A DNA stretch of 60,232 bases from a virus (lineage: Duplodnaviria > Caudoviricetes). The notes beneath the pieces are model-generated. The model was not told the origin of the DNA. It saw only the letters and a list, made by a program, of their open reading frames with translations, and did no database searches. Location: IMG/VR virus record IMGVR_UViG_3300044825_000282, positions 1-60,232 of that record; one strand, written 5' to 3'. The position numbers were made by a program, and so were the translations under genes. This document shows positions 471 through 59,755 of the stretch, piece after piece. Each line of letters begins with the position of its first letter. Within the stretch, counting starts at the first letter, position 1.

Positions 471-555
471 CGCCTATCTGAAATCCATCTGAAAGTCACC
501 GCAATTGCGGTAAGCGTTTAAACGCTGTGGTTGCCCACCGGTTTGCCCACCCCCC

Positions 556-2250
556 TCAGAAGGTATCGACGTTCTCGTTGTAGGTTCCAGTGACCTTATC
601 GTAGCCGAGCAGGACTTCACCCTGTGTGCCCACCCAGCGGTAGCGGCACTTCCAAACAGCCACCTCGACACCGTCCTGCGCCCGGTGAACGGTCAGGCCG
701 CAGTCGGCCTTGGCCCACCATGCCATCGATCCTGCGATGCTCATGCCGTCAGGACGGGGCAGATCGCTGCCAGAGCGTTGAACCTTGGAAGGGTGAGCCA
801 CGAACCAGACGTGGACCCCAAACGCCTTGGCGAAGGCTTGGACACGGGTCAGCATATCGCTGATCGCACCAGTCTCAGAGTCACCCCGGTTCTTCATGTC
901 GATGTAGTTGTAGGGGTCGATCACCATGCCCCGGACACCCAGTCGGGCAACCGCAGCCTGTGCGCGGTCGAGGATCGAGTCGATGGTTGCGGGTTCAACG
1001 TTCTCCGAGTCCATGAACAGGAAGTGATCGGTGACCCATTTAAACGCTCTGTCCTTCTCCTCGTCCGTCATGCGGTGGGAGCCTTCGAAGAATCGCTTGC
1101 CCTCGGCGATCTCCATGAAGCGGGTGATGTGGACTTCGGGTTGATTTTCGAATGAGCAGACAGCGAACTTCCACTGGTGCTGCTTGGCAAGGTTGACCAT
1201 CAACTGGTCAACGAAATTTGATTTGCCGTTGGATGGGTAGCCTGTGACGACAGTCAACTGCCCCGGTGCGACTGTGTAAATCTGATCGAGTGTCGCGTAC
1301 CCTGTTGAAACGCCCTTGCCTGTGCCCTTGGTCCAAAGGTCGTTGACTCGGTCGTAGAACTTGGAGGCTGAACTCAGACCCTCGACTGGGTAAGGTTCGG
1401 CTGCATCGATGATTTCTTTGACCCGCTGCGGGCCATCCTCCAGCAGCACCTCGTTTAAATCCTTCCTGTCGAACTTGGTCAGGCGGCACTTGTGTTTTCC
1501 GATTCGCCTTGCCAACTCTTCGGCGAGTGCTTGCCCGGGTCCATCGTTGTCTGTGGCGATGACGATGAAGGGAGCCTTGGAGAGTATCTCGTTTGCGTTC
1601 CAGACGAAAGCAAACTTCTTGTCCTCGCTGGCGGTGACCTTGCCATCAACCACCTTCATCGGCGCACCGGATGGAACAGAGACCACGTTCTCGATGCCGC
1701 ACTCGATGCCAGTCAGTGCATCGATCTCGCCCTCAACAATCACGATGGGTTTGTCTGCCATCACTTGATCGATGCCGAAGAAGTCGTGTGCCCCACCTGC
1801 GTCCTGCGTGAAGTCTTTGTCTTCGATGCTTCGATACTTCGCGGCAGTGATGGAGCCGTTGCGGTAGTAAGGGAAGCCAATCGCTGGTGCGTTGCGCCCG
1901 AGTCGTTGAAACCATTTCTCGGCAGCGAACAACTTCATCTTGTCAGCGGTCTCCCTGCTGATGCCGCGCTTCAACAAGAAGGCGTAGTGTGCGTCTTCCA
2001 ATGAAGACTGCGTGATATTTTGTTTTGGGACGACAGACAATTTTCTCTCCACATAGTGTGTTCTTTTTTCAAATGGGACGTTACCGCTCACCCCGCAGTG
2101 ATGGCAGTGGTACACCCACGCATCATCCTTGCGAGTCACAACCATCTCTTTGAGATTTTGTTTACGGCGTTGCGGTGAGCAACTGGGACAGGCTACACGT
2201 TCGGTGTCATCGACGTGCAGCGCAGATACGAATGCTTGAAGTTCATTCAA
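556..2250 (-). CDS. DNA primase-helicase (T7 gp4/Twinkle-like: Zn finger, TOPRIM, SF4 helicase)
   Basis: CPSC...CHHC Zn finger, EGEIDAL and DNDGPG TOPRIM motifs, Walker A GYPSNGKS, VIDPY Walker B, VAHP motif; TTG start with GGAGG RBS. Confidence 0.95.
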   Translation of the reverse strand: MNELQAFVSALHVDDTERVACPSCSPQRRKQNLKEMVVTRKDDAWVYHCHHCGVSGNVPFEKRTHYVERKLSVVPKQNITQSSLEDAHYAFLLKRGISRETADKMKLFAAEKWFQRLGRNAPAIGFPYYRNGSITAAKYRSIEDKDFTQDAGGAHDFFGIDQVMADKPIVIVEGEIDALTGIECGIENVVSVPSGAPMKVVDGKVTASEDKKFAFVWNANEILSKAPFIVIATDNDGPGQALAEELARRIGKHKCRLTKFDRKDLNEVLLEDGPQRVKEIIDAAEPYPVEGLSSASKFYDRVNDLWTKGTGKGVSTGYATLDQIYTVAPGQLTVVTGYPSNGKSNFVDQLMVNLAKQHQWKFAVCSFENQPEVHITRFMEIAEGKRFFEGSHRMTDEEKDRAFKWVTDHFLFMDSENVEPATIDSILDRAQAAVARLGVRGMVIDPYNYIDMKNRGDSETGAISDMLTRVQAFAKAFGVHVWFVAHPSKVQRSGSDLPRPDGMSIAGSMAWWAKADCGLTVHRAQDGVEVAVWKCRYRWVGTQGEVLLGYDKVTGTYNENVDTF

Positions 2251-2270
2251 TTGGATTAGCCTCCGATTGT

Positions 2271-2501
2271 TTACTTGTTGTCGCTCTTGTTCTTGGACCG
2301 TGAGCGCAACCTCAAATTTCCGGCAACGGTCTTGCCACCTTTGCTTATGGGCTTGACGTGGTCAATGTCCTTTCCTGCTCTGTCAATTCCATTCTTGTCG
2401 TACAGCCTTCGCGCCTTCTGGCGCTCAAGGAAACCTTGCACGTCACCGCGCTTTTTTTGTAACTGGTACTCGTGCTTGTAGTCTCGTTTCCTTGTCGCCA
2501 T
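2271..2501 (-). CDS. small HNH endonuclease
   Basis: DIDHVKPISKGG...NLRLRSRSKN HNH signature. Confidence 0.85.
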   Translation of the reverse strand: MATRKRDYKHEYQLQKKRGDVQGFLERQKARRLYDKNGIDRAGKDIDHVKPISKGGKTVAGNLRLRSRSKNKSDNK

Positions 2502-2510
2502 GTAGCCCTC

Positions 2511-2768
2511 TCAGTCGTACAGATCACTGCGCAGCAAGCAACCCTTGATTGCCTGTGCCGGTGTCCATCCTGTGGCGATTCGTCTTCCAAACACGGCAGT
2601 GAAACTGTCTCCGTGATCGGCGATGTCAACGACAAGGTTCCAATTGAATGCGTCTGGGTACGTCATGCACTTGGCAAAGTACACAACGATCTCGTTGTCA
2701 TCCTCTGGTGGTGGACACAAGTCCAAAATTGATTCAAGACACTCGTAGTCTTGTCTTTCGTATTCCAT
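2511..2768 (-). CDS. hypothetical protein (MEYERQD...)
   Basis: GGAGGCTAATC RBS directly before ATG 2768; the track's longer start runs through structured non-coding DNA. Confidence 0.7.
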   Translation of the reverse strand: MEYERQDYECLESILDLCPPPEDDNEIVVYFAKCMTYPDAFNWNLVVDIADHGDSFTAVFGRRIATGWTPAQAIKGCLLRSDLYD

Positions 2769-2779
2769 GATTAGCCTCC

Positions 2780-2990
2780 TGTTACACCTTGACTCAAGTT
2801 CTGCCCTTGGGAAGGGCAGACCTAGCCTTATCCTAGGACTGCCTTCACAACTGCCCCTCGGAGCCGGTTGACCCGCCAGCCTTTTCGATTCAGGGTGCTG
2901 GCTTCGCCGCCCTGTGTCCCGTTTCAAATCTATCCCGTGGTTGGACTATGCACACTTGCGCCCACCGTTGACCGTCACGCAAGCAGGTGA
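2780..2990 (-). ncRNA. candidate structured 5' leader RNA (H-type pseudoknot plus hairpins) of the primase operon
   Basis: CAGGG/CCCUG crossed with GCCAGC/GCUGGC (2875-2914); GGCAG-CCUAG/CUAGG-CUGCC hairpin; alternative CUGCCCUU/AAGGGCAG hairpin. Confidence 0.55.
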
Positions 2991-2992
2991 CC

Positions 2993-3022
2993 AGTTTACA
3001 GTGGGTCGATGAAATTTTTCAA
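2993..3022 (-). promoter_or_regulatory. possible sigma70 promoter for the primase operon
   Basis: TTGAAA-N18-TAAACT on minus strand. Confidence 0.4.
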
Positions 3023-3055
3023 GGCATAGATGCACGATTAGGGCAAGTCATAAGC

Positions 3056-3090
3056 AAAAAAAGGAGCGACTGCGTTTAAACAATCGCTCC
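3056..3090 (-). terminator. Rho-independent terminator with GTTTAAAC in its loop region
   Basis: GGAGCGA..TCGCTCC stem plus T7 on minus strand. Confidence 0.85.
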
Positions 3091-3135
3091 GTTCAAGCCT
3101 AATGGCAACTGCGCTTGGATGGAGAAGTTCCAAGC
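3056..3135 (-). ncRNA. candidate sRNA-B (~80 nt)
   Basis: promoter TTGACA(3169-3164)-N16-GAGAAT; 5' hairpin GCUUGGA/UCCAAGC begins at the predicted +1; ends in terminator GGAGCGA/UCGCUCC plus U7; no ORF. Confidence 0.65.
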
Positions 3136-3141
3136 AGGTTC

Positions 3142-3219
3142 ATTCTCGCGAAGCGGTGTTGCGTGTCAATCGAGAACAAACTGCGAACGCTTGACAAGGC
3201 TCATGCGACTTGTGACAAT
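3142..3219. promoter_or_regulatory. back-to-back divergent sigma70 promoters with GAAC-N7-GAAC between the two -35 boxes
   Basis: minus: TTGACA-N16-GAGAAT; plus: TTGACA(3191)-N17-GACAAT(3214) with extended TG; GAACaaactgcGAAC at 3174-3188. Confidence 0.7.
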
Positions 3220-3225
3220 GCGTTC

Positions 3226-3304
3226 ATTCCTTCGTGATTAGCCTCCGAGCGGATACCACTACCGGTGGGGTAAAGGGACTCTTCGTGAGTCCCTTTATTT
3301 TTTT
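3226..3304 (+). ncRNA. candidate sRNA-A (~79 nt) with anti-RBS seed GAUUAGCCUCCGA
   Basis: near-consensus promoter upstream, strong terminator downstream, no credible ORF; seed is the reverse complement of several phage RBSs. Confidence 0.7.
3272..3304 (+). terminator. Rho-independent terminator
   Basis: AAAGGGACTC-ttcgt-GAGTCCCTTT followed by A and T7 (long U tract only on plus strand). Confidence 0.85.
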
Positions 3305-3681
3305 CCGAGCGGTTCAACACGAATCTCGCACCTCGGGTTCTGCGGGTCGAGCGCCCAGTAGATGTGCTTCTCTTTCACCTGCCTGTCGTTCTTGTAGGCC
3401 ACGTCCTGCAACAGATCAAGGATCAGGCTCTCGTCCAGATCGGGGCGGCGGCTTGCGTACCAAATCTTGATGTGAACGGCGACATCCCCTTCGATCATTC
3501 GGCCTGCTCGTGCTTGCAGTTTAAACGCAGAGGCATACGACAACGCCTTCGCTGACTTGATCAACCGAGGCGAACCTCCGATGGTCACCATCTTCCGACT
3601 GTTGGCTTTTGACGCTGGCTCCCCAAGAATTTTGAATGCAAGTGCTTGTGGCGCGTTCGTGTTAGTGCTATCATCATCCAT
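3295..3681 (-). CDS. rusA: RusA-like Holliday junction resolvase
   Basis: GEPASKANS N-terminal motif, RRPDLD...ILDLLQ...KNDRQV acidic triad, PRCEI C-terminus. Confidence 0.85.
   Translation of the reverse strand: MDDDSTNTNAPQALAFKILGEPASKANSRKMVTIGGSPRLIKSAKALSYASAFKLQARAGRMIEGDVAVHIKIWYASRRPDLDESLILDLLQDVAYKNDRQVKEKHIYWALDPQNPRCEIRVEPLGKK
3646..3674 (+). promoter_or_regulatory. sigma70-like promoter of the recombination operon with a GTTCGTG half-site
   Basis: TTGTGG-N17-TATCAT with extended TG; spacer contains CGTTCGTG. Confidence 0.5.
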
Positions 3682-3710
3682 ATGTTCAATCCACTCTATG
3701 GAGGCTCCTT

Positions 3711-4589
3711 TTGAAAGTCACAAACAAACACAATGTTCCCGAAACATTGGTCGCTCTGGCATCCAGAGATTACTACACGAAAGGCAAGGCTGACTACAGC
3801 GTCACCGAGATCATCTCCCCGCCCCGCATCCAGCGCCTTCGTCGCGCACACCACGAACAGATGGAGCAGGACGTGAGCGATATGCTCTGGCAACTGCTTG
3901 GCTCTGCCCTGCACGTTGTCGCCGAGCGTGGCGCAGCGGACGGTCACATCACCGAGGAGCGCCTGTTCACCGAGATCGACGGCGTGAAACTCTCGGGAGC
4001 CATCGACATCCAGAAGGTGGAGTCGGATGGCACGATCATCACCGACTACAAGTTCACCAGCGCGTGGGCGTTGCGTCAGGACAAGTTCGAATGGGAAGCC
4101 CAGCAGAACATCTACGCATGGCTGGTCGAGCGTGAGAAAAAGCAGAAGGTCAAGGGCGTTCAAATCTGCGCCCTGATCCGCGACTGGAGCCGCCGTGAAG
4201 CGTCCGTCAAGCCCGACTACCCCCAAGCCCCCATCCAAGTTCTTGAACTGCCCCTGTGGCCCCTTGAGCGCACCGAGGCATATGTTCGTGAGCGCATCGA
4301 GGCACACCGCATGAGCAAGGTGCAAGCCGACTGGGGTGATGAACTGCCGCCCTGCTCAGACGATGAACGCTGGGTGCGCGAGACCAAGTTCGCCGTCAAG
4401 CGCGAGGGCAGGAAGACTGCCATCCGTGTGTTCGACACGCAGCAAGAGGCTGACGAACTGGCGGTCAAAGAGAGCGGCTACGTCGAAGTGCGCAAGGGAG
4501 AAGCCATCCGCTGCACTGGCAACTTCTGCGGCGTGGCTGAGTGGTGCAGTCAGTATCAGAAATCCCTGAAGGAGGCTACCGATGAGTGA
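3711..4589 (+). CDS. PD-(D/E)XK (Cas4/RecB-like) exonuclease
   Basis: GSALH, SGAID...ITDYKFT, QQNIYAWL, C-terminal Cys cluster (RC..FC....WC); upstream of the ERF gene. Confidence 0.85.
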   Translation: MKVTNKHNVPETLVALASRDYYTKGKADYSVTEIISPPRIQRLRRAHHEQMEQDVSDMLWQLLGSALHVVAERGAADGHITEERLFTEIDGVKLSGAIDIQKVESDGTIITDYKFTSAWALRQDKFEWEAQQNIYAWLVEREKKQKVKGVQICALIRDWSRREASVKPDYPQAPIQVLELPLWPLERTEAYVRERIEAHRMSKVQADWGDELPPCSDDERWVRETKFAVKREGRKTAIRVFDTQQEADELAVKESGYVEVRKGEAIRCTGNFCGVAEWCSQYQKSLKEATDE

Positions 4590-4827
4590 CCGGATGAGTG
4601 AAGAAAAGTTCTGGATCGTGATCTGGGGTCTGGCATCAATCTGCTTTTGCGTTTTGATTCTGTCGATCACGGCAACTATGTGGAGCAAGCGGTCCCATCT
4701 CAATGAGATGGTCGCAAAGGGTGCGGACCCAATCCGCGCTGCGTGTGCGTTGGATATGTATGACAACCAAACCGTGTGCGTCATACACAACGTGAGGTTT
4801 GACCAAGCATGGAAGGAAGGACAATGA
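4582..4827 (+). CDS. hypothetical membrane protein
   Basis: GGAGG RBS, one hydrophobic segment, overlaps with both neighbours. Confidence 0.7.
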   Translation: MSDRMSEEKFWIVIWGLASICFCVLILSITATMWSKRSHLNEMVAKGADPIRAACALDMYDNQTVCVIHNVRFDQAWKEGQ

Positions 4828-5462
4828 ACGTCTATCAGAAACTCAACGAAGCCCGGGACCAGTTCCATCAGGCTTCACTCAAAAAGAGCGGACACAACAA
4901 GTTCGCTGGCTACTCGTACTTTGAACTCGGTGACTTCGTTGTCCCTGCCCTTGAGATTTTCAAGCAGGTTGGGCTGACCTCCGTCATCTCGTTTAAACCG
5001 GACGAGGCAACCATGCAGATCATCAACACCGACAAGCCGGACGAGATGATCGTCATCTCTACCCCGATGAGCGAGGCATCCCTCAAGGGCTGTCACCCGG
5101 TCCAGAACCTAGGCGCTGTGCAAACCTACCTTCGGCGTTACCTGTGGGTGGCTGCGATGGAGATCGTCGAGCATGACGCGCTCGATTCCACCACCGGCAA
5201 CAAAGCGCAAGACCCTGCGCCAGCAGAACCCGCACCCAAGAAGATCGTTGCCAAACGCTACGAGGAGCAAGACCCGAAGAGCGAACTCTTCGTGCAGTCG
5301 ATGATCAACTGGGGCAACTCATGCACCTCGCTCACCGAACTCACCGACCTGTGGAAGACCAATCAACCGCAGATCGATGAACTGAAGAAGAACAGCAAAG
5401 AACTGTTCAAGCGTGTCCAAGAGCATTTCGCTCAACTCAAAGCCAACTTTAAAGAGGACTAA
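4824..5462 (+). CDS. erf: ERF-family single-strand annealing protein
   Basis: KKSGHNKFAGYSYFEL and GAVQTYLRRYLW...EHDALD ERF motifs. Confidence 0.9.
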   Translation: MNVYQKLNEARDQFHQASLKKSGHNKFAGYSYFELGDFVVPALEIFKQVGLTSVISFKPDEATMQIINTDKPDEMIVISTPMSEASLKGCHPVQNLGAVQTYLRRYLWVAAMEIVEHDALDSTTGNKAQDPAPAEPAPKKIVAKRYEEQDPKSELFVQSMINWGNSCTSLTELTDLWKTNQPQIDELKKNSKELFKRVQEHFAQLKANFKED

Positions 5463-5464
5463 TC

Positions 5465-5752
5465 ATGGCTGATCGTGAATACCTAAACAGCGGCACTCTG
5501 TTCCAGAACCGTGTCAAGAAAAACCCGAAGGCTCCCGACTACCAAGGCGACATGACGCTCGACCTTGCTGCTCTGGGCATTGGAACCGGCAAAGCCAAAC
5601 TGCGCATTGCTGGCTGGAAGAAGACCTCCAGCAAGGGCACAACGTTCCTTTCTCTGAACATCAGTGAATTCAAAGAACGCGAAGAGGGCGGCTACCCCCG
5701 CGCAGCAGCACCGCAGCCGCAGTACAGCAACGACGAAGACGAACCCTTTTAA
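5465..5752 (+). CDS. ssb: single-stranded DNA-binding protein (short OB-fold type)
   Basis: KNPKAPDYQG, IAGWKK, acidic C-tail DEDEPF; follows erf. Confidence 0.8.
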   Translation: MADREYLNSGTLFQNRVKKNPKAPDYQGDMTLDLAALGIGTGKAKLRIAGWKKTSSKGTTFLSLNISEFKEREEGGYPRAAAPQPQYSNDEDEPF

Positions 5753-5766
5753 ACACGGAGGCTAAC

Positions 5767-6111
5767 ATGGCAAAGAAAGTTTCACGGATTGGTTTCCTGC
5801 GCGAGAACCCGGATGCAACCTACGAGGAATTTTTTAAGGCAACCGGTGGTTCAAAGCAGAACTACCACAGCAACCGCTGGCTGATCGGCAAGGAAGTGAA
5901 AGGCGCTTCCAAGCCGCGCAAGACCATGACCGTCAAGGTCAAGGCTCACCGCCGTCATCCTGCTGGCACTGCACCAGCGGACCTGATTATTGCCAACGGC
6001 AAGGTGGTGAAACTTCAAAGCGAGATCGACAACCTGAAGCATCAGATCGTGGGCTTCCGTGCGGTCATCTCTTACCTTGAAGACTTGGCTGGGTTGAGGA
6101 ACTCGCAATGA
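5767..6111 (+). CDS. hypothetical protein with C-terminal coiled coil
   Basis: GGAGGCTAAC RBS; ATGA-coupled to next gene. Confidence 0.75.
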   Translation: MAKKVSRIGFLRENPDATYEEFFKATGGSKQNYHSNRWLIGKEVKGASKPRKTMTVKVKAHRRHPAGTAPADLIIANGKVVKLQSEIDNLKHQIVGFRAVISYLEDLAGLRNSQ

Positions 6112-6521
6112 GTGCCCTGCAATTTGAAGCGTTGAAGGTTGCGTTAAAGCAGGACGCAACCGGATACGTTCTCACGGTCAAGATTCATCCCGACGAGATA
6201 CCCGAGGAACTGCTGCGCGACTTTGTCGGTGCGAGATACGGCGTTGCGATGGTCCGTATAAACGACGACGAGTCGCCCATGATGGTCAAGAACCGAGTGC
6301 AGAAGGCCGGGATGCTATGCCGAAACAACTGGTTCCATCGTTTCCTTACCGAGCGTTACGAGATCGGTAGGGCAAACGAGGCGACTGCGACGCGCTTCAT
6401 TCATGACATCTGCGGCATCAAGTCGCGGACTGAACTCAATGGCAACGCTGCTGCGCAAGAAGCCTTCGACAAACTGGTGGAGGAATACGAAGAATGGAGC
6501 GAGAAAAATGACCCGTTTTAA
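6108..6521 (+). CDS. hypothetical phage protein
   Basis: 137-aa ORF in a translationally coupled operon. Confidence 0.75.
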   Translation: MSALQFEALKVALKQDATGYVLTVKIHPDEIPEELLRDFVGARYGVAMVRINDDESPMMVKNRVQKAGMLCRNNWFHRFLTERYEIGRANEATATRFIHDICGIKSRTELNGNAAAQEAFDKLVEEYEEWSEKNDPF

Positions 6522-6834
6522 AACAGTGGCTCCCCTCATGATCTATGTGCCACCGGCAGAACTTGCGGAACTCAAGAAGTTTGCGAAGTCCGCGAAGAAG
6601 CCCGTGTCCCACATAGCGCGTGAGGGAATCCGAATGCGACTTGCAGGAGAGAGTAACCCCTACAACAGCGGATTCGATGATGGCCTAAGTGCAGCAATGG
6701 ACGTTGCACAGAAAACCAAGGGTGCGCAGATGCGCTTCCCATCCGGCAAATCGTTTGGACAACTGGTGTGCGATGAGATTGAAAAGTTTAAACGCACACG
6801 GGAGATGCCGGAGGGTGGTGATGACGGCGAATGA
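6508..6834 (+). CDS. putative ribbon-helix-helix DNA-binding protein
   Basis: PLMIYVPPAELAELKKFAKSAKKPVSHIAREGI fits the RHH strand-helix-helix pattern. Confidence 0.6.
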   Translation: MTRFKTVAPLMIYVPPAELAELKKFAKSAKKPVSHIAREGIRMRLAGESNPYNSGFDDGLSAAMDVAQKTKGAQMRFPSGKSFGQLVCDEIEKFKRTREMPEGGDDGE

Positions 6835-7090
6835 CAAGCAGGTGGGCGGCAGTCATTACAAGGGAGGAGCAATCCAGCCTTGGGATTACATCGCCGCCAA
6901 CAACATTGGCTACTTCGAAGGCAACATCATCAAGTACGTTTCCCGATGGAAGCAGAAAGGTGGTTTGAACGACCTGAAGAAAGCGCAGCACTACCTTGAG
7001 AAACTGATTGAACTAACCGCACTGGAGGCTAACCGTGATGAGCGCGAACGAATGGACCGCACGAATGGAAGAAGAGAGAGTGAAGACTGA
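6821..7090 (+). CDS. DUF3310 (SaV-like / T7 gp1.7-like nucleotide kinase family) protein
   Basis: QVGGSHYK...GYFEGNIIKYVSRWKQKGGLNDLKKAQHYLE signature. Confidence 0.85.
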   Translation: MTANDKQVGGSHYKGGAIQPWDYIAANNIGYFEGNIIKYVSRWKQKGGLNDLKKAQHYLEKLIELTALEANRDERERMDRTNGRRESED

Positions 7091-7250
7091 GGTAAGCAGT
7101 CTTCCCATCGAGGCAAAGATTGCCATCGCTCTCAGGACAGCAGAGTGCATCGAGCAGAGTAAGGACGCTGACGTGGTCAAGGGTCTGAAGGTTTTGTTTC
7201 AGACCGTGATCCACGACTTGGTGACCATCAAGACCGAGCCGAGGCACTGA
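7035..7250 (+). CDS. hypothetical protein
   Basis: GGAGGCTAA RBS before GTG/ATG. Confidence 0.65.
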   Translation: MMSANEWTARMEEERVKTEVSSLPIEAKIAIALRTAECIEQSKDADVVKGLKVLFQTVIHDLVTIKTEPRH

Positions 7251-7251
7251 C

Positions 7252-7590
7252 ATGGACCAAGAAGACGTTATCCGCATGGCGCGTTCCGATGATTGGGCAG
7301 CCGATGTGTCTTTGAAGTGGGATGCTTTTTTTGTGCGTTTTGCCAACCTTGTCGCCGCTGCTGAACGCGAGAAGGTCGCTGCATGGATGATTCAGCGCGG
7401 CTACGCAACCGGGCACGGTGACACCACAGAAGACCTGCTCAATGAACTTAATTGGCAGATTGCGGAGCGCATCGCCGCCGAGCGTGAGGCGTGTGCGAGG
7501 GTGTGTGATGTGGTCATACCCGGCGACGAGTATTCGACTGCACTCATAAACAGTTACGCTGACGACATCCGCGCAAGGGGAGAGAAATGA
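7252..7590 (+). CDS. hypothetical phage protein (AAEREACA family)
   Basis: FANLVAAAERE / AEREACARVC motifs; resembles 51143..51427. Confidence 0.75.
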   Translation: MDQEDVIRMARSDDWAADVSLKWDAFFVRFANLVAAAEREKVAAWMIQRGYATGHGDTTEDLLNELNWQIAERIAAEREACARVCDVVIPGDEYSTALINSYADDIRARGEK

Positions 7591-7931
7591 ACAGAACATC
7601 CATTGAGGCGATCAACCTTGTACTGGCAACCTTGAATTTCGACGATGCCTATCCGGCCCAGCGTGAACTGCTGCGCGAAGCCTTGGAAGCGGCAAAGCGG
7701 AGTCAAGAACAAATCTCCGGGTTGAGCGCATTGTGTGAGACGTTGAACAAACTGCAAGAGACTGCCGTGCAGATGATCAAGCCTGCGGTGGAGGCCGCAG
7801 TGCTGAAAGAGCGTGAGGCCAACGCCCGTGTGCTGGATGAAATGGCTGACCAAATGGTTGCCGATATGGAGCCGAGTGCTGCCGTGGCGTGGGTGCGCAG
7901 TAAGGCAGAGGAAATCAGGAGACGGGCATGA
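7587..7931 (+). CDS. hypothetical protein
   Basis: ATGA overlaps at both ends. Confidence 0.7.
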   Translation: MNRTSIEAINLVLATLNFDDAYPAQRELLREALEAAKRSQEQISGLSALCETLNKLQETAVQMIKPAVEAAVLKEREANARVLDEMADQMVADMEPSAAVAWVRSKAEEIRRRA

Positions 7932-8734
7932 TCAAGGACATCCTTGAGGCATACGGCAAGCACCTTGAGCAGACCATCACCCACCAGCGGGGGATGATCG
8001 CCATCAAGCGGCTTGCCCCACTGCATGGCTGCACGGTCAGGAACGTCTCAAAGCAGATCGAGCGGTACATCAATGACCGCAAGGCATCGCCCGGGACCAT
8101 CAACCGGGAACTGGCGGTGCTGCAAGCGGCCCTGCGCTGGTCGTTTAAACGTGGAGAGATCGACTTCCTGCCCGCCATCCCGAGGTTGCCTTCACCTCCC
8201 CCTCGATCCAAGTTCCTGACGGACTCGCAGGTCGCCGCCCTGCTGGATGCCGCCAAACCATATCCACACGTTCACACGTTCATTCGGATTGCGCTCATGA
8301 CCGGGCAAAGGAAGGAAGCCATCCTGTCCCTGCGCTGGGATCAGGTGGATTTCCAGACCGGTCTGGTGGACTTCAATGACCCCTCTGGGACGCTTTCTCA
8401 CCGCAGGAAGGGTCGAGGTATTGTCCCGATGTCAGACGCGCTCAGAACCCTGCTGGAGGGCTTGCCAAAGGACCATATGCACGTCATCCACCACTACGGC
8501 AGACGGGTGCGGGACTTGCGCGGGGTCTGGTCCCGACTCATGAAGGAGACTGGGCTGGACATCACGCCCCACATCCTGCGCCATACAGTTGCCACCCAAC
8601 TGGCTCAGAAGAACGTGCCCATGCCCCAGATTTCCAGACTGCTGGGACACCGGCAGACCGCCATCACCGAACGGGTCTACGCCAAGTTCTCCCCGGAGTT
8701 CTGCCGCCAAGCCGTCACCCACCTCAACGTTTAA
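7928..8734 (+). CDS. tyrosine recombinase/integrase (short, no arm-binding domain)
   Basis: TINRELAVL core-binding motif; catalytic R (TGQRKE), HILRH, LGH, Y (RVYAK). Confidence 0.92.
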   Translation: MIKDILEAYGKHLEQTITHQRGMIAIKRLAPLHGCTVRNVSKQIERYINDRKASPGTINRELAVLQAALRWSFKRGEIDFLPAIPRLPSPPPRSKFLTDSQVAALLDAAKPYPHVHTFIRIALMTGQRKEAILSLRWDQVDFQTGLVDFNDPSGTLSHRRKGRGIVPMSDALRTLLEGLPKDHMHVIHHYGRRVRDLRGVWSRLMKETGLDITPHILRHTVATQLAQKNVPMPQISRLLGHRQTAITERVYAKFSPEFCRQAVTHLNV

Positions 8735-8736
8735 AC

Positions 8737-8997
8737 ATGGAACCAGCAAGTTTTCTCATCCTCATCCTGCTCAACGGTCGCGTGGTGGAGGAACACCCGG
8801 TGGAGACCTTGGAGTCCTGCATCGAGATGACCCGAGAGACCAATGACGATGGGAGCAAGCAAGCGGCTTGCGCCATCAACTACAGGAAGAACAATGACAC
8901 AGCCGATTGCAATCACCCTAAAGCCCAGCGAGTACGCAACTGCCGTCTACCTAACGTCAGTCCGGGAGTTCGTGAACCGAGACTACGGCGTGAGTGA
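8737..8997 (+). CDS. hypothetical protein
   Basis: starts 2 nt after the recombinase stop; overlaps next gene by ~100 nt. Confidence 0.45.
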   Translation: MEPASFLILILLNGRVVEEHPVETLESCIEMTRETNDDGSKQAACAINYRKNNDTADCNHPKAQRVRNCRLPNVSPGVREPRLRRE

Positions 8998-9376
8998 CAG
9001 ACAGATGGGGCGGGACGATGGGTTTCAGATCGGGATTGATGGACTGGTCGCTGAGATTGCTGTCTGCAAATACTTCAACGTCTACCCGGACCTGTCGTTC
9101 GAACCAAGGGCTGGTGGCGTGGACTGCGTCATCAAAGGCAGAAGGGTAGATGTCAAAAGCACAAAGCCCGGACGGGATCGCGTTTACATCCCTGAATGGA
9201 AATCCAGTCATGGGATCGACCGTTACGTCTATTGCTATGTGGACTTCAGGACCGTCGAGATACTCGGATGGTTCGCGCCGCAGGACATATTCCGCGAAGA
9301 CAACCTTGAACCATCACCGCGAGAGAACGTCAATCACCACGTCCTCTTTTTGGAAAACCTGAGAAAATTTGATTGA
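8894..9376 (+). CDS. putative PD-(D/E)XK endonuclease-fold protein
   Basis: GLVAEIAV...GGVD...VDVKST pattern. Confidence 0.65.
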   Translation: MTQPIAITLKPSEYATAVYLTSVREFVNRDYGVSDRQMGRDDGFQIGIDGLVAEIAVCKYFNVYPDLSFEPRAGGVDCVIKGRRVDVKSTKPGRDRVYIPEWKSSHGIDRYVYCYVDFRTVEILGWFAPQDIFREDNLEPSPRENVNHHVLFLENLRKFD

Positions 9377-9713: not shown

Positions 9714-9810
9714 TGTTCATGGAAGACGGATTGGCGCACAGTGCATTTACTGCCATGCACGTCAATCCGCTTCAATGATCAACGGTAAGCCTAGTCAATC
9801 GACTTCTTGA
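9610..9810 (+). CDS. possible small zinc-finger protein
   Basis: CFKC...CIYC; overlaps previous gene by ~100 nt. Confidence 0.35.
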   Translation: MEQNGNSTNKQSSASKYCFKCGRAFPEAMMRPKFDVHGRRIGAQCIYCHARQSASMINGKPSQSTS

Positions 9811-41517: not shown

Positions 41518-41538
41518 AACATCATACTGCGTTTAAAC

Positions 41539-49042: not shown

Positions 49043-49072
49043 ATCCGCTCCTCGGTTTAAACGATTAAGCGG

Positions 49073-52519: not shown

Positions 52520-52548
52520 ATGATAGTGCGAACGTGTGTTCGCATCAA
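52520..52548 (-). promoter_or_regulatory. sigma70 promoter with operator TGCGAAC-N4-GTTCGCA
   Basis: TTGATG-N17-TATCAT; palindrome at 52527-52544. Confidence 0.75.
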
Positions 52549-52797
52549 GTATTTTTATGCAAAGTACCCCCCGGGGGTGACGAAATGTAAACGCTGGATG
52601 TTTATACAGAAGTTAGGGGGTTTAGCCTGACCCGATAACTCTCTAGAAAGGGGTGGGGGGTGCGAACGTCTGCACTCCGTGCAGATACAGCCTGTCGGCT
52701 TTCTGGTGTGTATATGCGAACGTTCGTATTGGAAAGGGGAAGTGGTGGAATGTGTGGATTAGAGCGTATAGGGTGGAGGGGTGGCCTTGCGCGTACA

Positions 52798-52957: not shown

Positions 52958-53599
52958 TTAGGCACTGCGTTTCTCAGTCTGCTTAACACTCTCAAGCACA
53001 CGGAGATGCCCACGCAGTTCGTCCTTCAGTTGCTGGACATTCACCTGCTGGACCTTCTGGTCCACATTGTCAGTGAACATTGCCACCGCTCTGCCCATGA
53101 GTTCCAGCGCCTTGAGTTCTGCCGACTCGGTCTTGGCGTTGAGCACCCTGTCGTGTAAACGCTCCATCACGAATCGACGGGTCTTGACTGCGTCTTCGAT
53201 CACCTTTTCTTTGAGCGCCTCATCGAGAGACCCCAGAAGCGCAGTGATCCTCGCATCCTTCAGGAGTTTGTTCGCATTGGCAATGATCGATGCATCGTTC
53301 TCTGTTCGTGAGTTGTACGCCGAGCGATACGCTTCCACCTTGGTCTTCCCTGACAGGATGGCGTTGACGAACAACTGCATCTGAGGCGTGAGTCTTCTTC
53401 CCTTCTGTTCTACGGGAACTCCCCACACCTTGCCTGTCTTTGTCTTCTTCTCTCGTATCTTTGCCACTGCCGCCTGTACGCCTTCGGCAGGGTTCCCCGG
53501 CTCGTTCGTGCTTGCGTGAGGATCGTCCTCGGTGATCGCATCACTCTCCAGCAGTTCGATCAGTTTGTCTCGCTTGGTCATTCGTGCCCCTTTCAACAC
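52958..53599 (-). CDS. terminase small subunit-like protein
   Basis: LTPQMQLFV..GKTKVEAYRSAY..ANKLLKDARI..KALELMGR..MFTD pattern; true start may be ATG 53581. Confidence 0.75.
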   Translation of the reverse strand: MLKGARMTKRDKLIELLESDAITEDDPHASTNEPGNPAEGVQAAVAKIREKKTKTGKVWGVPVEQKGRRLTPQMQLFVNAILSGKTKVEAYRSAYNSRTENDASIIANANKLLKDARITALLGSLDEALKEKVIEDAVKTRRFVMERLHDRVLNAKTESAELKALELMGRAVAMFTDNVDQKVQQVNVQQLKDELRGHLRVLESVKQTEKRSA

Positions 53600-53890: not shown

Positions 53891-53919
53891 TTGCGTTCGT
53901 GCTTGTATCCGTTTAAACT
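53891..53919 (+). promoter_or_regulatory. sigma70 promoter of the early arm; -10 lies within GTTTAAACT, GTTCGTG half-site at -35
   Basis: TTGCGT-N17-TAAACT. Confidence 0.6.
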
Positions 53920-54721: not shown

Positions 54722-55288
54722 ATGCACACCAACCGTGAAGAGTGGCTCAACGCCGCCGTCGAGGAACTCCGTCCGATCTTCGACTCGATCAACTACGCCC
54801 TGCCGGATCGCATTCGTGTGACCTGCGGATTCCCCTCCAGCCGTGCCCGTGCGAACAACGCCTTCATCGGTGAGCACTGGTCCCCTGCGGCATCGAACGA
54901 CAACCACCACGAGATTCTGATCTCGCCTGTCGTTGACGATCCCCTGCAAGTGTTCGCCACGCTGGTCCACGAACTGGCCCACGCCGCCACTGACGGTGAC
55001 GGTCACGGCAAGCGGTTCACCAAGTGCGTCCGCTCCCTCTGGCTGGAAGGCAAGCCCACCGCCACGGTGGCGGGTGACACCTTCAAGCAGAACTTCGCCA
55101 ACCTGCTCCAGTCGCTCGGCGCTTACCCCCATGCCCGTTTAAACATCGAGGCAGTGCGGAAGAAGCAAAGCACCCGGATGCTCAAGGCTTGCTGCCCGTC
55201 CTGCGGGTACACCGTTCGCCTGTCTCAGTATTGGGCGAACCAAGGGCTACCTACCTGCCCGAATGATCGCAACACCCTGTCCCTGTAA
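54722..55288 (+). CDS. SprT-like zinc metalloprotease
   Basis: TLVHELAH..GHGKRF; C-terminal CPSCGY..C Zn ribbon. Confidence 0.85.
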   Translation: MHTNREEWLNAAVEELRPIFDSINYALPDRIRVTCGFPSSRARANNAFIGEHWSPAASNDNHHEILISPVVDDPLQVFATLVHELAHAATDGDGHGKRFTKCVRSLWLEGKPTATVAGDTFKQNFANLLQSLGAYPHARLNIEAVRKKQSTRMLKACCPSCGYTVRLSQYWANQGLPTCPNDRNTLSL

Positions 55289-56780: not shown

Positions 56781-57803
56781 ATGATTGCACTGGAAGCAAA
56801 GCGCGGAGTCGAAGCGACTCTGGAGCGCGTGTTCAAAGCGACTGGCAACGAGTTCGAAAAACTGGTTGTCGCATGGACCGGCACAACGGCTGGCATCAAG
56901 ACCGAGGGCAGCACGACTTACATCATGTTCCCCGGCATCGATGAGACCAAGCCTGTCGAGCAGACCATGTTCAACGAACTCATCGGCTACGCCCTGCACG
57001 AACTCGGTCACAAGTGGTTCACGCAGGATCGCCCGTGGGACAACGCACGAAAGCAGCACGGCGCGTATGTGTCGGCCCTGATCAACGGTCTGGAAGACCC
57101 GCGCATCGAAGAGTGTGTCGTCAAGTCTGGCTACGCACCGAATGCTCGGGTGCTGTTTGAGTTCCTCGTCAATCAGGTGCTGCGCAAGAACGGCTACGTC
57201 GAGCCGGATGACTTCAAGAACATCCCGTTCATGCTCGCCATCGAGGGTCGTCGTTTAAACGGCTACACGATCTGCTTCGACTCCATCGTCGATGCGTCCC
57301 CGTACAAGGTCGAACTGCGCTGGGCACTCAGAGCAGCGAAGAAGGCGCAGGACACGAAGACCATCGCGAAGATCGCCGTCGAACTGTACGCCCGACTCAA
57401 GCAGCGCCGCGACGAACTCCAGCAACAGCAGCAGGAGCAGCAGCAGCAGGACCAGCCCGGTGACAAGTCGCAGCCCGGTGATCAGCCGGGGCAGGATGCG
57501 AACGGGTCTGAGGCTTCTCAGAACGGCGCAGGAGACGCGAACGCAGACGGCGAAGGGGAAGGTGAGGGTGAGCAGGGATCGCAGCCCGGAGATCAACCCG
57601 GCGACGAACCCGGTGACCAGCCGAGTGACCAGCCCGGTGAGGGTGGCGGTCACGGCGAAGGCGGCGAAGAGCCTGTCGGTCGCAACCCCGAGCCGACTGA
57701 CTTCATCAATGACCGGTGCGGTGAGATCAAGTCGGATGCGGACGAACACCGTCCCCGTCCGCACGTTGGCAAGCCGGTCGTTCTCAACTTTGAACTCGTG
57801 TAA
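56781..57803 (+). CDS. CobT-N-like zincin-motif protein with acidic Gln/Gly/Pro linker
   Basis: ALHELGH..NGLEDPRIE; QPGD repeats. Confidence 0.8.
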   Translation: MIALEAKRGVEATLERVFKATGNEFEKLVVAWTGTTAGIKTEGSTTYIMFPGIDETKPVEQTMFNELIGYALHELGHKWFTQDRPWDNARKQHGAYVSALINGLEDPRIEECVVKSGYAPNARVLFEFLVNQVLRKNGYVEPDDFKNIPFMLAIEGRRLNGYTICFDSIVDASPYKVELRWALRAAKKAQDTKTIAKIAVELYARLKQRRDELQQQQQEQQQQDQPGDKSQPGDQPGQDANGSEASQNGAGDANADGEGEGEGEQGSQPGDQPGDEPGDQPSDQPGEGGGHGEGGEEPVGRNPEPTDFINDRCGEIKSDADEHRPRPHVGKPVVLNFELV

Positions 57804-57812: not shown

Positions 57813-58619
57813 ATGCCAACCATCCGCAAAGCAGACGGCGAACAACGCTTCGCCCTTGACCTCGCCAACGCCCCGCAGGGTGTCGGCGCAACCCGCACCA
57901 ACCTGCAACGCTTGCTGCACTCGCTGGACTTCATCGGCTGGAGCAAGTCGGAAGAGTCGGGCCGACTGGACCGCCGCGCACTGACCAAGTTCGCGACTGG
58001 CTCGGTCAACGTGTTCAGCCGCCGTCAGCACATTCAGGCCGAGACCTCTGCGGTGTCGGTGCTGATCGACTGCTCTGGCTCGATGAACGATGACCAGCGT
58101 GGCAGCAGCCGCATTCAGGTTGCGCAGCAGGTCACGGTCCACCTGACGAAGATGCTTCAGCAAGCGCGTGTCCCGTTCGCGGTGACCGGGTTCCGCAACG
58201 GCAAGGTCGATTACCTCGACAACGGCGGCAGGACCGAGCGCCCTCACTTCCTCCCGTTTAAACCGTGGGGCAAGACCTTGCAGCAGTCGCTGGCAACCAT
58301 CGGCTCGATCAGCCTCTGCGCAAGCGGCGGCACTCCCGACTATACCGCGCTGGCGAATGCCATCGATGAACTGGCGCAGCGTCCCGAGCATCGTCGCATC
58401 CTCTTCATCATCACTGACGCAGAGGGCTACCAGCGTGAGCATATGCAGCATCTGCAACGCATCGCAGACAAGGTCGGCGTGACCATCGTCGCCATCGGCA
58501 TCCAGTCGAGCAGCGTGGTCCGGTGCTTCGTCAATGCGGTGTCCGTCAGCAGTCTGTCCGACTTGGGTGCGACTGCGTTCAATCAACTTCTCAAGGCTGT
58601 TCAGCGAAAGGTCCACTGA
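57813..58619 (+). CDS. von Willebrand factor A (CobT-C-like) domain protein
   Basis: SGRLD, LIDCSGSM MIDAS, GGTPD, IITD, VAIGI. Confidence 0.88.
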   Translation: MPTIRKADGEQRFALDLANAPQGVGATRTNLQRLLHSLDFIGWSKSEESGRLDRRALTKFATGSVNVFSRRQHIQAETSAVSVLIDCSGSMNDDQRGSSRIQVAQQVTVHLTKMLQQARVPFAVTGFRNGKVDYLDNGGRTERPHFLPFKPWGKTLQQSLATIGSISLCASGGTPDYTALANAIDELAQRPEHRRILFIITDAEGYQREHMQHLQRIADKVGVTIVAIGIQSSSVVRCFVNAVSVSSLSDLGATAFNQLLKAVQRKVH

Positions 58620-58620
58620 T

Positions 58621-58812
58621 ATGCAACTCATCAACGCTCAAGGCAAGCCCGTGCAAACGGGCGACATCCTGCACGGCAAGCGCGGCAGGTATGTGTTCCT
58701 CGGTCACGACGACAAACTCATCAACGTCCAAACCGCAGACGAGCGCCGGGTCTACTCATGGGTGGACCCCGCTCGATTCAATCTTCAATTCGTTCAACAG
58801 GAGGCAGCATGA
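58621..58812 (+). CDS. hypothetical protein (MQLINAQG...)
   Basis: starts 1 nt after the vWA stop; ATGA coupling downstream. Confidence 0.7.
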   Translation: MQLINAQGKPVQTGDILHGKRGRYVFLGHDDKLINVQTADERRVYSWVDPARFNLQFVQQEAA

Positions 58813-58979
58813 AACAGTTTCTCATTCAAGGCTTCATCGGTCTTTTCCTTATGGCTCTGCTGGCGGTCGGTTTGCTCGACTGGTTCGGCGGCTGCGGCGA
58901 GTCGTGGGTGCAAGCAGACGGCACTCGCATCATGGGTGAGTGCATGGGGCGCGAACTCTTCTTCAGTCTTTTCAAGTGA
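58809..58979 (+). CDS. small membrane protein (MKQFLIQG...)
   Basis: AGGAGG RBS; TM helix then GCGE..GEC. Confidence 0.7.
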   Translation: MKQFLIQGFIGLFLMALLAVGLLDWFGGCGESWVQADGTRIMGECMGRELFFSLFK

Positions 58980-58986
58980 GGCATCA

Positions 58987-59229
58987 ATGGCATACAACAA
59001 AAAAAGCGCGAAGGTCGGATCGGATCATCCTGTCCATCGTCTGTTTCTCGCCGCCGATTCAATCATCGACGCAGCCAACGCAGCAGCAACCGAGAGCGGA
59101 ACTCAAGTGCGCAACCGGCAACTGATCATCCCCGTATGGATGGAGTCGCACCCTGTCATCAAGATCACCATCGAGTGCGGTCCTGAGACAGAGGCAGAGT
59201 ACGCAATCTTCAAAGCACAAACCAAGTGA
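58987..59229 (+). CDS. hypothetical protein (MAYNKKS...)
   Basis: GAGG RBS. Confidence 0.65.
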   Translation: MAYNKKSAKVGSDHPVHRLFLAADSIIDAANAAATESGTQVRNRQLIIPVWMESHPVIKITIECGPETEAEYAIFKAQTK

Positions 59230-59236
59230 GGCAATC

Positions 59237-59314
59237 ATGCAAAAGAAAATTCACATCATCTGGCTATACCTGTTCACGCTGGCAATCGCTGCCATCGTTT
59301 CGTATCCCTACTAA
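59237..59314 (+). CDS. 25-aa hydrophobic peptide MQKKIHIIWLYLFTLAIAAIVSYPY
   Basis: GAGGCAATC RBS; fills the operon gap. Confidence 0.6.
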   Translation: MQKKIHIIWLYLFTLAIAAIVSYPY

Positions 59315-59329
59315 CCATCGGAGGCAATC

Positions 59330-59755
59330 ATGGGAAATCGTGCAGTCATCACCGCAAGCAAAGTCAAGGACAGCGGCCTTGGCATCTACTTACACTGGAA
59401 CGGCGGCATCGAGTCGGTCGTCGCGTTCCTCGACGTGGCCCGTCAACTGGGCTACCGAGACCCCACTACCGACGAGTCGTATGGCATGGCACGTCTGTGT
59501 GGCCTCATCTGTGTGTTCGCTGGCATCAGGGGCGACACCGGGGTCGGCATCAATGACCTATCCAAACTCGACTGCGACAACTACGACAACGGTGTGTTCG
59601 TCATCGGTTCGAAGTGGGAGATCGAGGATCGCTGGGGTCACGGCAGCAAACCGTTTAAACGCGAAGACATCGAGGCGGCTCGTGCGTCCCAGTCCTACAC
59701 GCAGGTGGTCGATCATCTGATTGCAGAACTGGAGCGCGTCGAGTCGGTCGCGTGA
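59330..59755 (+). CDS. conserved phage early protein
   Basis: MGNRAVI..GIYLHWNG..DNGVF motif; GGAGG RBS. Confidence 0.8.
   Translation: MGNRAVITASKVKDSGLGIYLHWNGGIESVVAFLDVARQLGYRDPTTDESYGMARLCGLICVFAGIRGDTGVGINDLSKLDCDNYDNGVFVIGSKWEIEDRWGHGSKPFKREDIEAARASQSYTQVVDHLIAELERVESVA

Follow-up and report, generated by a model that had tools for sequence, protein, structure and literature searches.

An exact eight-base palindrome dispersed through the genomes of an uncultured freshwater phage clade, with a candidate phage-encoded reader

The virus record IMGVR_UViG_3300044825_000282, a 60,232-base sequence rated 97% complete and analysed here in its entirety (the window), carries 29 exact copies of the 8-bp palindrome GTTTAAAC, which is its commonest 8-mer. 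The window belongs to a podovirus-like phage of an uncultured freshwater clade, and the density of the palindrome within it, 4.8 copies per 10 kb, is well supported as the outcome of selection at the level of DNA and is explained by neither base composition nor protein sequence. The enrichment is a trait of the phage clade, in which individual sites turn over while their density is kept. We favour, with a probability of roughly 0.4, the reading that a symmetric DNA-binding dimer encoded by the phage, probably the ribbon-helix-helix (RHH) protein of 6508-6834, has the copies as its dispersed binding sites.

An earlier note on this DNA, made from the letters alone, had listed 29 perfect copies. 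An exact search of the window matched every one of them and returned none beyond these. A zero-order model expects 0.56 copies, as the note had estimated (~0.5), at a GC content of 55.6% that takes the place of the ~57% given there. Among 100 dinucleotide-preserving shuffles, the mean count was 0.28 and the maximum 2, with none reaching 29. One-mismatch copies, described as many, number 41 across 24 variants against ~14.6 expected in sum, and include GTGTAAAC (7 copies), CTTTAAAC (5) and ATTTAAAC (2). The flank preference that had been written as YGTTTAAACR is likewise present, with a pyrimidine before 22 of the 29 copies and a purine after 23 of them. Contigs from four independent studies span all 30 bins of window positions 1-20000, a coverage that speaks to the region and not to single sites, with ~2,740 differences present; thus, the window DNA is not the artefact of a single assembly. 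Near-identical DNA is also found in sequencing runs from 10 studies.

Most of the copies are written into genes. Twenty lie within called open reading frames (ORFs), two extend across stop codons and seven are intergenic, and the in-ORF copies use just the two frames reported before, giving Phe-Lys or Leu-Asn. The codon-preserving shuffle that the earlier note had proposed as a check leaves a mean of 1.01 coding copies and a maximum of 5 in 300 shuffles when codons are exchanged within genes, and a mean of 0.71 and a maximum of 4 when they are exchanged across genes, against the 20 observed. This null is conservative, because the shuffled genes retained the TTT, AAA and TTA codons contributed by the motif itself. 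The choice of codon pairs is skewed in the same sequences: TTTAAA encodes 20 of the 51 Phe-Lys pairs of the window, where ~5.5 would be expected from codon usage, and TTTAAG occurs once. Pooled over eight motif-rich genomes, TTTAAA makes up 220 of 389 Phe-Lys pairs (117.5 expected) and TTAAAC 197 of 583 Leu-Asn pairs (63.4 expected). These eight genomes together hold 298 copies of GTTTAAAC where 7.9 are expected; a test on related phages had been suggested in the note. Of this pooled set, 211 copies are inside genes, in either orientation, and non-coding DNA, at 6-10% of the sequence, carries 29%. The codon-preserving null, the codon-pair bias, the presence of the motif throughout a diverged clade and the excess conservation of aligned sites together give good support to selection on the DNA itself, and bear out the proposal of DNA-level selection for a genome-wide mark.

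The clade is large. At least 597 contigs in IMG/VR encode a related large terminase (terL), and among the best 80 of these (74-95% large-terminase identity), which formed the terL-centred survey, 76 carry at least one copy of GTTTAAAC, at 2-14 per 10 kb. The whole or large related genomes G001, G002, G016, G017, G011, G013 and G009 hold 40, 43, 39, 49, 40, 42 and 16 copies, respectively, with 0-3 copies of the reversed control word. Motif-bearing relatives range from 40 to 56% GC and differ in their restriction-avoidance patterns. The marine relatives HTVC023P and 023Pt_psg01 have 2 and 3 copies, and in them TTTAAA reaches merely 1.4-1.5 times expectation. The earlier note had asked after the host genome, and no excess was found in any of 277 bacterial genomes sampled as candidate hosts, the true host not being identified. 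In five metagenome-assembled genomes (MAGs) that contain terL contigs of related type, copies number 28-48 per 1.2-3.8 Mb, and none of the five is above the reversed control. The highest count in the 121 Burkholderiaceae is 103 per 2.4 Mb, most of these genomes being at or below the reversed control, and the highest in the 151 Actinomycetota is 58 per 1.5 Mb. Among the genomes sampled, the enrichment is restricted to the phage clade, as a lineage trait. Full-text literature searches found no published description of the motif, and a term search of passages from the article on HTVC023P-type phages (PMC9599517) found none either. Two contigs of the clade, L043 and L051, also have further frequent words besides GTTTAAAC, namely ATGCATTG, GCATTGCA and CAATTGC, at up to 11 copies in 8.8 kb.

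Aligned genes of clade members share 54-63% nucleotide identity, with the pair G000 and G009 at 76%. Comparison of the genomes in ordered pairs gives 754 aligned sites, of which 195 are conserved, about six times the 31.1 expected from all 8-mers. Near-fixed positions are the copy at 3519-3526 within the rusA gene, which holds the motif in all five relatives compared, and that at 57253-57260 within ORF 56781-57803, kept in four of five. The copy at 55137-55144, within the SprT-like gene, is kept in three of five relatives. Most other positions differ between genomes, and density is thus maintained through turnover; the sites are under purifying selection with positional turnover. Along the genomes their spacing is Poisson-like and indistinguishable from random placement (coefficient of variation 0.81-1.25), at ~0.5-1.3 sites per kb, or about one per 1-2 kb. 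On small numbers, core genes carry 4.4 copies per 10 kb and accessory genes 2.1-2.3.

This maintenance takes place in a lineage that otherwise sheds palindromes. The general statement that phages avoid palindromic sites holds well for the window, from which 34 of the 64 palindromic hexamers are absent, where first-order Markov simulations average 1.5 absences, with 5 at most. AGCT does not occur at all (229 expected), nor does CCWGG, and GGCC is reduced to 110 from an expected 359. Relatives avoid other sets of palindromes; G011, for example, is without AGCT, CCWGG, GGCC and GATC. The same test of restriction-site avoidance applied to GTTTAAAC gives the reverse outcome, with 29 copies observed and 0.56 expected. 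The lineage evades restriction by losing sites, yet keeps one palindrome at ~40-50 times expectation.

One relative departs from this pattern. The complete genome G015 (the record behind contig L181) has 73 TTTAAA loci, similar to the 81 of G016 and the 85 of G017, and retains two full palindromes where its own outer-base usage predicts 12.3 (our arithmetic). In their place are 56 half-sites with G on one side only (AG 34, CG 16, GT 6), in both orientations, which align to full sites of G016 or G017 at 7-8 orthologous positions. Random destruction would mostly lose the TTTAAA core, which persists, and so the full palindrome seems to have been counter-selected in G015 with its loci retained. 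We infer that this lineage escaped a restriction enzyme specific for GTTTAAAC while keeping the loci. Enzymes of this specificity are plausible in Burkholderiaceae because some of their genomes are nearly without the word: G110, G113, G126, G099 and G066 have 2, 0, 1, 1 and 1 copies, respectively, where the reversed control has 19-76, with 2 copies against 76 and 0 against 32 as examples. The genomes G014 and G018 have lost the outer-G preference and still hold TTTAAA at 4.4 and 2.9 times expectation. In G014, G015 and G018 alike, the array of sites that commonly follows the primase-helicase gene (see below) is absent.

The sequence that a reader would recognise can be delimited from the pooled sites. 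Beyond the 8-mer, information over 210 sites is confined to the pyrimidine and purine flanks, so that the fuller form of the motif is Y-G-T-(T/G)-T-A-A-A-C-R around a TTTAAA core. GTTTA occurs at 1.4-1.9 times expectation, GTTTAAA at 15-17 times and GTTTACA at 3-6 times, and GTTTAAC, GTTTAAG and GTTTAAT fall below expectation. Pooled one-mismatch variants have observed/expected ratios of 2.8 at positions 1/8, 2.75 at positions 3/6 (mostly T to G) and 0.73 at positions 2/7; the counts at position 1 are 70 for A, 51 for C and 28 for T, and T to G at position 3 accounts for 86. The two outer bases are chosen independently, as in G017, where 49 sites with G on both sides compare with 45.9 expected (our arithmetic). 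Because the outer bases are independent, positions 1/8 and 3/6 tolerated and positions 2/7 depleted, the contacts would be additive between half-sites, and the pattern looks like the code of a symmetric dimer, not random decay. Asymmetric variants point both ways relative to genes and along genomes, with neither a switch in orientation nor a strand bias, which argues against a signal specific for strand, transcription or replication direction.

Copies concentrate at two hubs. The first lies behind the gene of a T7 gp4-like primase-helicase (556-2250, minus strand; zinc ribbon, Toprim and DnaB_C domains). At least one copy occurs within 600 bp after its stop codon in 46 of 52 distinct regions, in 36 of them within 70 bp by our own count, and arrays of 2-6 copies are common. 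The window has a copy here at 516-523, 32 nt past the stop codon and among other small repeats. The surrounding gap (433-555) contains a terminator, ATCTGAAA twice, the palindrome CCGCAATTGCGG, GCGTTTAAACGC and TTGCCCACC twice, and this repeat-rich gap could be an origin. The second hub is the region upstream of a gene for a 76-aa LexA-like protein (48812-49042, minus strand) that abuts terL; copies are found in 57 of 116 distinct upstream regions. Its recurring layout consists of a terminator, GTTTAAAC, TTGCGA or TTGCAC, 17 nt, and a further GTTTAAAC followed by a T that forms TAAACT. In the window, one copy (49055-49062) abuts the ribosome-binding site of the LexA-like gene, and the other (49074-49081) would supply the -10 element of the LexA-like/terL promoter, reading TTGCAC, 17 nt and TAAACT on the minus strand. 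Upstream of the same gene, contigs L071, L143 and L149 have DnaA-box-like sequences, TGTGGATAA and TGTGGACAA, beside GTTTAAAC and between two copies of it, and in the two close relatives L005 and L006 a sequence like a tRNA 3' end (GGTTCGA...CCA) stands just before the promoter.

Similar arrangements occur at two more intergenic copies of the window, both on the plus strand: 53911-53918 (TTGCGT, 17 nt, TAAACT), a putative promoter of the rightward operon, and 24027-24034 (TTGACA, 17 nt, TAAACG), which is promoter-like by reading. The earlier note had placed promoters at 24027, 49074 and 53911. The TTGnnn-17 nt-TAAAC(T/G) arrangement can indeed be read at each, but a promoter scan of the window made no call at any of the three, all being below its threshold, and they are best regarded as candidate promoters predicted from sequence. 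Sites in general disfavour the T that completes TAAACT (9% at +1), and a -35-like TTG is present at only 7 of 17 intergenic T-flanked sites. The terminator contexts that had been described were both recovered, the copy at 3074-3081 lying in the loop of a minus-strand terminator hairpin and the intergenic copy at 41531-41538 starting in the T-tail of a tool-called terminator after the capsid gene. Two further copies provide stop codons through their TAA, as the note had observed for the recombinase and endolysin genes: that at 8729-8736 ends the tyrosine integrase gene and that at 27242-27249 the gene of an M15 peptidase, likely the endolysin.

The remaining copies are intragenic. In the left part of the window they are found within the ERF recombinase gene (4991-4998, Phe-Lys frame), the RHH gene itself (6786-6793, Phe-Lys frame), the tyrosine integrase gene (8143-8150) and ORF 9369-9713 (9436-9443, Leu-Asn frame). 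Five lie within the gene of a 3045-aa virion protein (11164-11171, 11456-11463, 14635-14642, 16346-16353 and 17071-17078, the last kept in two of four aligned relatives), two within ORF 18938-20836 (19556-19563 and 20504-20511) and one within ORF 22275-24005 (22716-22723). Farther right, single copies are located in ORF 35370-35786 (35747-35754), ORF 38294-38563 (38470-38477), the portal gene (45855-45862), a CobT/VWA-like gene (58256-58263) and ORF 59330-59755 (59653-59660).

Two phage proteins come into consideration as readers. The RHH protein (6508-6834, plus strand) is 108 aa long, with an N-terminal ribbon-helix-helix and a conserved C-terminal domain (MRFPSGKSF). Atlas clusters for it carry RHH_3, RHH_5 and RHH_1 with scores of 0.90-0.95. 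Its AF2 model (mean pLDDT 77) has an extended N-terminus followed by helices at residues 16-28 and 33-49, and eight of its ten best PDB matches are RHH DNA-binding domains, CopG and Arc among them, at target-normalised TM-scores of 0.64-0.76. A homologue is encoded in all 10 relatives and in neither of the two marine phages without the motif, which makes it a clade core gene. The assignment made from the sequence alone is upheld by clusters, model and fold matches. A scan for mosaic phages centred on the RHH gene found same-clade members only, among the best 80 of 153 relatives, and a tblastn search with the protein against cultured phages gave no match. One of its homologues is named 'plasmid stability protein' by a source. 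A single RHH dimer reads ~8 bp through a β-ribbon inserted in the major groove and, because this matches both the size and the symmetry of the site, the RHH protein is the likeliest candidate and remains the best putative reader.

The LexA-like protein, which was not among the candidates of the earlier note, consists of a LexA-type winged-helix DNA-binding domain only. It matches PF01726 at 64.1 bits (cut-off 23.7; E 1e-17) and LexA structures at E 2e-6, the match covering the DNA-binding domain, and it is without the C-terminal S24 peptidase/dimerisation domain. A second class of motif can be assigned to it with more ease. The palindrome CGAAC-N4-GTTCG occurs at 49083-49096, in the spacer of the LexA-like/terL promoter, and at 52529-52542, in the spacer of a tool-called promoter, and its form without a gap, CGAACGTTCG, occurs at 50332-50341, again in the spacer of a tool-called promoter, and at 52717-52726 in an intergenic region. 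All four are in intergenic regions that read as minus-strand promoter regions, two of them tool-called. The site at 49083-49096 is likely an operator of the LexA-like protein, and the CGAAC sites probably belong to a phage regulon of their own, small and separate from GTTTAAAC; we take the palindrome to match the GAAC half-site of Gram-positive LexA boxes. A comparison of the recognition helix with the motif variants gave no clean covariation, with one clade-level coincidence of His to Met. Among cultured phages, the nearest one to encode a homologue is Ssp-JY39 (40% identity), which is uninformative, as its 50 kb contain no copy of GTTTAAAC. A role of the LexA-like protein as the small terminase was ruled out, as PHROGs place that gene at 52958-53581; tblastn detected no homologue of the small terminase of HTVC023P and 023Pt_psg01. 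The tyrosine recombinase, which the earlier note had also named as a candidate reader, is excluded. It is found in the window only, with no homologue in any of 10 relatives (seven motif-rich and three motif-poor), and being unique to the window it cannot be a general reader.

On the favoured reading, an RHH dimer would bind GTTTAAAC and nucleate at the two hubs, namely the array after the primase-helicase gene, as a putative origin or control region, and the promoter regions, at which the motif overlaps the presumed -10 element. The 30-50 further copies, written into genes by synonymous codon choice, would then spread the protein over the phage chromosome, where it may mark or organise the DNA for replication, for the timing of transcription or for packaging. 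Clustered sites offer a suggestive sign of helical phasing near 10 bp: over 147 distinct pairs separated by 80 bp or less, gaps peak near 17-19, 30, 40, 49, 58, 68 and 78 bp, and none of 5000 nulls reaches the best period of 9.9 bp. A more specific version of this reading, which we consider rather doubtful, makes the motif a viral 'self' mark, in which the RHH protein on ~30-80 TTTAAA-centred sites would let replication or packaging tell phage from host DNA. Such a mark might be the phage counterpart of uptake sequences, Chi or matS, and would be in open conflict with restriction.

Several observations weigh against the RHH protein as a reader bound along the chromosome. The fold-search E-values are weak (0.8-4 overall, and 0.8-1.8 for the RHH domains among the ten best PDB matches), and Pfam gives no match for the protein. 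Its gene is kept in motif-poor genomes, so that presence or absence does not discriminate, and its β-strand does not covary with the motif variants: G014, with its outer G lost, and G015, with its half-sites, share the strand KFKPFMAYL, and L262, with no copy in 12.9 kb, has a strand close to that of motif-rich phages. In the pooled genomes, perfect copies of the 8-mer number 298 and one-mismatch copies 369, the latter spread over 24 variants, an exactness more like that of enzyme targets or uptake signals than that of typical operators. The spacing period is no longer significant if every gap length enters a single time (351 of 5000 nulls), and homologous arrays are non-independent observations of spacing. 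The reading does not account for the need of a lytic-looking clade, in which the window alone has an integrase, for 30-50 intragenic sites. Finally, a host reader or a host-driven repair bias retains a share of the probability.

The array behind the primase-helicase gene invites the proposal that this enzyme, itself the reader, uses the array as an origin and the dispersed copies for lagging-strand priming or restart. The arrays of 1-6 copies in 46 of the 52 regions agree with it, as do a site density of about one per 1-2 kb, a replication module that is clade-specific like the motif and absent from the marine relatives, and the lack of a DNA polymerase gene among the clade ORFs scanned. The protein has an N-terminal CPSC...CHHC element of zinc-ribbon type, which we liken to the sequence-reading domain of T7 gp4. 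Known primases, though, read 3-5 nt, and here at least seven positions are read; the asymmetric variants show no orientation switch or strand bias, sites overlap promoters and terminator loops too, and a ~10-bp spacing suits one face of a duplex and not single-strand priming. We therefore hold this account to be unlikely. Decidedly so is one in which the motif has no binding function and results from a mutation or repair bias like that of HIP1, through a methyltransferase acting on TTTAAA or GTTTAAAC and a methyl-dependent repair. Palindromic exactness over 8 bp, a density of ~0.5-1.3 per kb both inside and outside coding sequence, Poisson-like spacing, an inner TTTAAA enriched 2.9-6 times even without the outer G, and common deviations at the outer positions (observed/expected 2.8) would suit it, and fit the HIP1 pattern and repair model in the portions of Elhai (2015; PMC4390886) that set them out. 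On the other hand, no methyltransferase domain was detected in ~60 ORFs of the window, variants at positions 1 and 3 are over-represented and not depleted, and none of the 277 sampled bacteria has an excess, where a host-borne drive should mark the host too; the hubs, the fixed promoter geometry and the ~10-bp phasing are left unexplained by such a drive.

A conserved host factor exploited by the phage, whether a nucleoid-associated protein or a nuclease signalled in the manner of Chi, would explain why one motif is shared by phages whose GC contents and restriction avoidance imply different hosts, and why neither phage DNA-binding protein covaries with it. No enrichment is seen in the 121 Burkholderiaceae, 151 Actinomycetota and 5 MAGs, for which host identity is unverified. 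A signal of the Chi type would be asymmetric and in excess in its host, and GTTTAAAC is without strand bias; we regard a host factor as quite improbable. The chances of the LexA-like protein in place of the RHH protein are slim, in spite of the two copies in its own 75-bp upstream region, the occurrence of a copy there in 57 of 116 relatives and its status as a clade core gene. In its recognition-helix region the sub-lineages with outer-G loss (G014 and G018 types) have Met where most of the motif-rich phages have His (HRIVMR and HRIVHR), but this change is essentially one evolutionary event, and near-identical proteins go with different variants: ATTTAAA in L074, GTGTAAAC in L131-133 and no copy in L134. 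LexA sites span ~16 bp, and a palindrome of 8 bp leaves no room for two winged-helix domains on the same face; the separate CGAAC-N0/4-GTTCG palindrome, four of four in promoter regions as read, fits the protein better. That the copies are transcription signals and nothing else, as -10 elements or parts of terminators, is very improbable. Three intergenic copies do lie 17 nt after TTGnnn, in an arrangement fixed in many relatives, two are in or beside terminators, and the non-coding share of sites (29%) far exceeds that of sequence. Against this stand the location of 211 of the 298 pooled sites within genes, where they face either way, the disfavoured T at +1, the scarcity of -35-like TTG (7 of 17) and the silence of the promoter scan. 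Set against these alternatives, binding by a phage-encoded dimer, probably the RHH protein, remains the reading that we prefer.

The gene content of the window is that of a podovirus-like phage. Structural and packaging genes annotated in it include the large terminase (47313-48815), the portal (44914-47304) and the capsid (41574-42482). The 3045-aa ORF (9791-18928, minus strand) matches only PHROGs of unknown function and probably encodes a protein that is internal to the virion or ejected from it. Two paralogues of SU10-adaptor-like type (PF24175) are encoded on the minus strand at 35786-36493 and 37303-38040. An ejection protein and CobS/CobT-like and SprT-like genes are present as well. 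The replication and recombination module comprises the primase-helicase, a small HNH protein, RusA, a PD-(D/E)XK nuclease, ERF and an SSB-like protein. Acidic tails, ...DEDEPF and ...EKNDPF, which resemble the C-terminal tip of bacterial SSB, terminate two small core proteins of this module (5465-5752 and 6108-6521); an Atlas search with the latter protein returned unnamed viral clusters only. Pfam and PHROGs scans of ~60 window ORFs, in which small ORFs were not all covered, showed no methyltransferase domain, and no DNA polymerase gene was found among the clade ORFs scanned. No tRNA genes were found in the window, and hence no hint of the host. The tyrosine integrase (7928-8734) is part of a block (7038-8734) in which it and three neighbouring ORFs lack homologues in all 10 related genomes. 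Natural populations vary in part of this block, as contigs from other studies join 7249 or 7586 straight to 7928. Among named phages, 023Pt_psg01 and two phages of Pelagibacter, HTVC027P and HTVC023P, come closest, their large terminases being 52-58% identical to that of the window, and a near-identity search of window positions 1-25000 against 50,697 phage records found no match.

These findings point to a DNA-level function strong enough to override both codon preference and the risk of restriction over long divergence, in a clade that is uncultured and yet widespread and abundant in freshwater, with its at least 597 related contigs in one collection. Should the sites prove to be bound genome-wide, chromosome-wide site systems would extend to a small phage of lytic type; should biased repair be their origin, a HIP-like process would have been seen in a virus for the first time. 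The half-sites of G015 and the near-zero counts in some Burkholderiaceae amount to a natural experiment that sets a required motif against restriction. The list of candidate readers is short, and each can be tested in vitro without culture of the host.

Dispersed short sites are known from several systems, and GTTTAAAC shares features with each. To our knowledge, and in keeping with literature searches that found none, no comparable site system has been described for a 60-kb phage. The stoperators of Cluster A mycobacteriophages are sites for the L5 gp71 repressor, 13-14 bp long, asymmetric, oriented with transcription, situated mostly at gene boundaries and found in temperate phages. As in that case, tens of copies of a short site (29-49 here) are distributed over a phage genome, some at presumed promoters, and the reader is taken to be one phage-encoded protein. 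In contrast, GTTTAAAC is an 8-bp palindrome with a Y/R flank only and unoriented variants, ~70% of its copies are intragenic (20 of 29 in the window, 211 of 298 pooled), and the integrase is absent from all 10 relatives. The RHH operators built of short units, such as the 8-bp metbox of MetJ, the 7-bp heptads of the omega repressor and the sites of CopG and Arc, serve few promoters as contiguous repeats. A unit of ~7-8 bp that fits one RHH dimer and regularly spaced arrays at regulatory regions are held in common with them; most copies of GTTTAAAC, unlike those units, are solitary and intragenic.

Chromosome-wide systems of cells provide the other comparisons. The sites of MatP (an RHH protein that binds matS), SlmA and Noc are 12-16 bp long, occur on bacterial chromosomes and are confined to macrodomains. 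Like these, the motif consists of 20-70 short palindromes across a replicon with, as proposed here, one dimeric organising reader, but its site is of 8 bp and its replicon a 60-kb phage. Uptake sequences (DUS/USS) and Chi are asymmetric, reside in host genomes and are often strand-biased. They act as 'self' signals for machinery that handles DNA, to which GTTTAAAC may be likened as an exact short word at about one per kb that is put into genes via synonymous choice, whereas it is palindromic, unbiased and phage-only, with no excess in the 277 bacteria (host not identified). HIP1 of cyanobacteria (GCGATCGC) is an 8-bp palindrome of cellular genomes that is tied to orphan methyltransferases, according to the relevant portions of Elhai (2015; PMC4390886). 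As far as those portions describe it, HIP1 is matched by GTTTAAAC in its exact palindromic form of 8 bp, in a density of about one copy per kb within genes and outside them (the window has 4.8 per 10 kb, relatives up to ~14), in an inner hexamer that persists alone, in outer-base variants and in lineages that lose or replace the motif. For deviations at the first and last bases, as described there for HIP1, the observed/expected ratio here is 2.8 at positions 1/8, and positions 3/6 stand just as high (2.75). GTTTAAAC departs from that account of HIP1 in its confinement to a phage clade, the absence of a detected methyltransferase, the lack of excess in the sampled bacteria and its hubs. Together, these comparisons show that the GTTTAAAC system differs from stoperators, HIP1, matS-type sites and RHH operators in at least one defining feature each.

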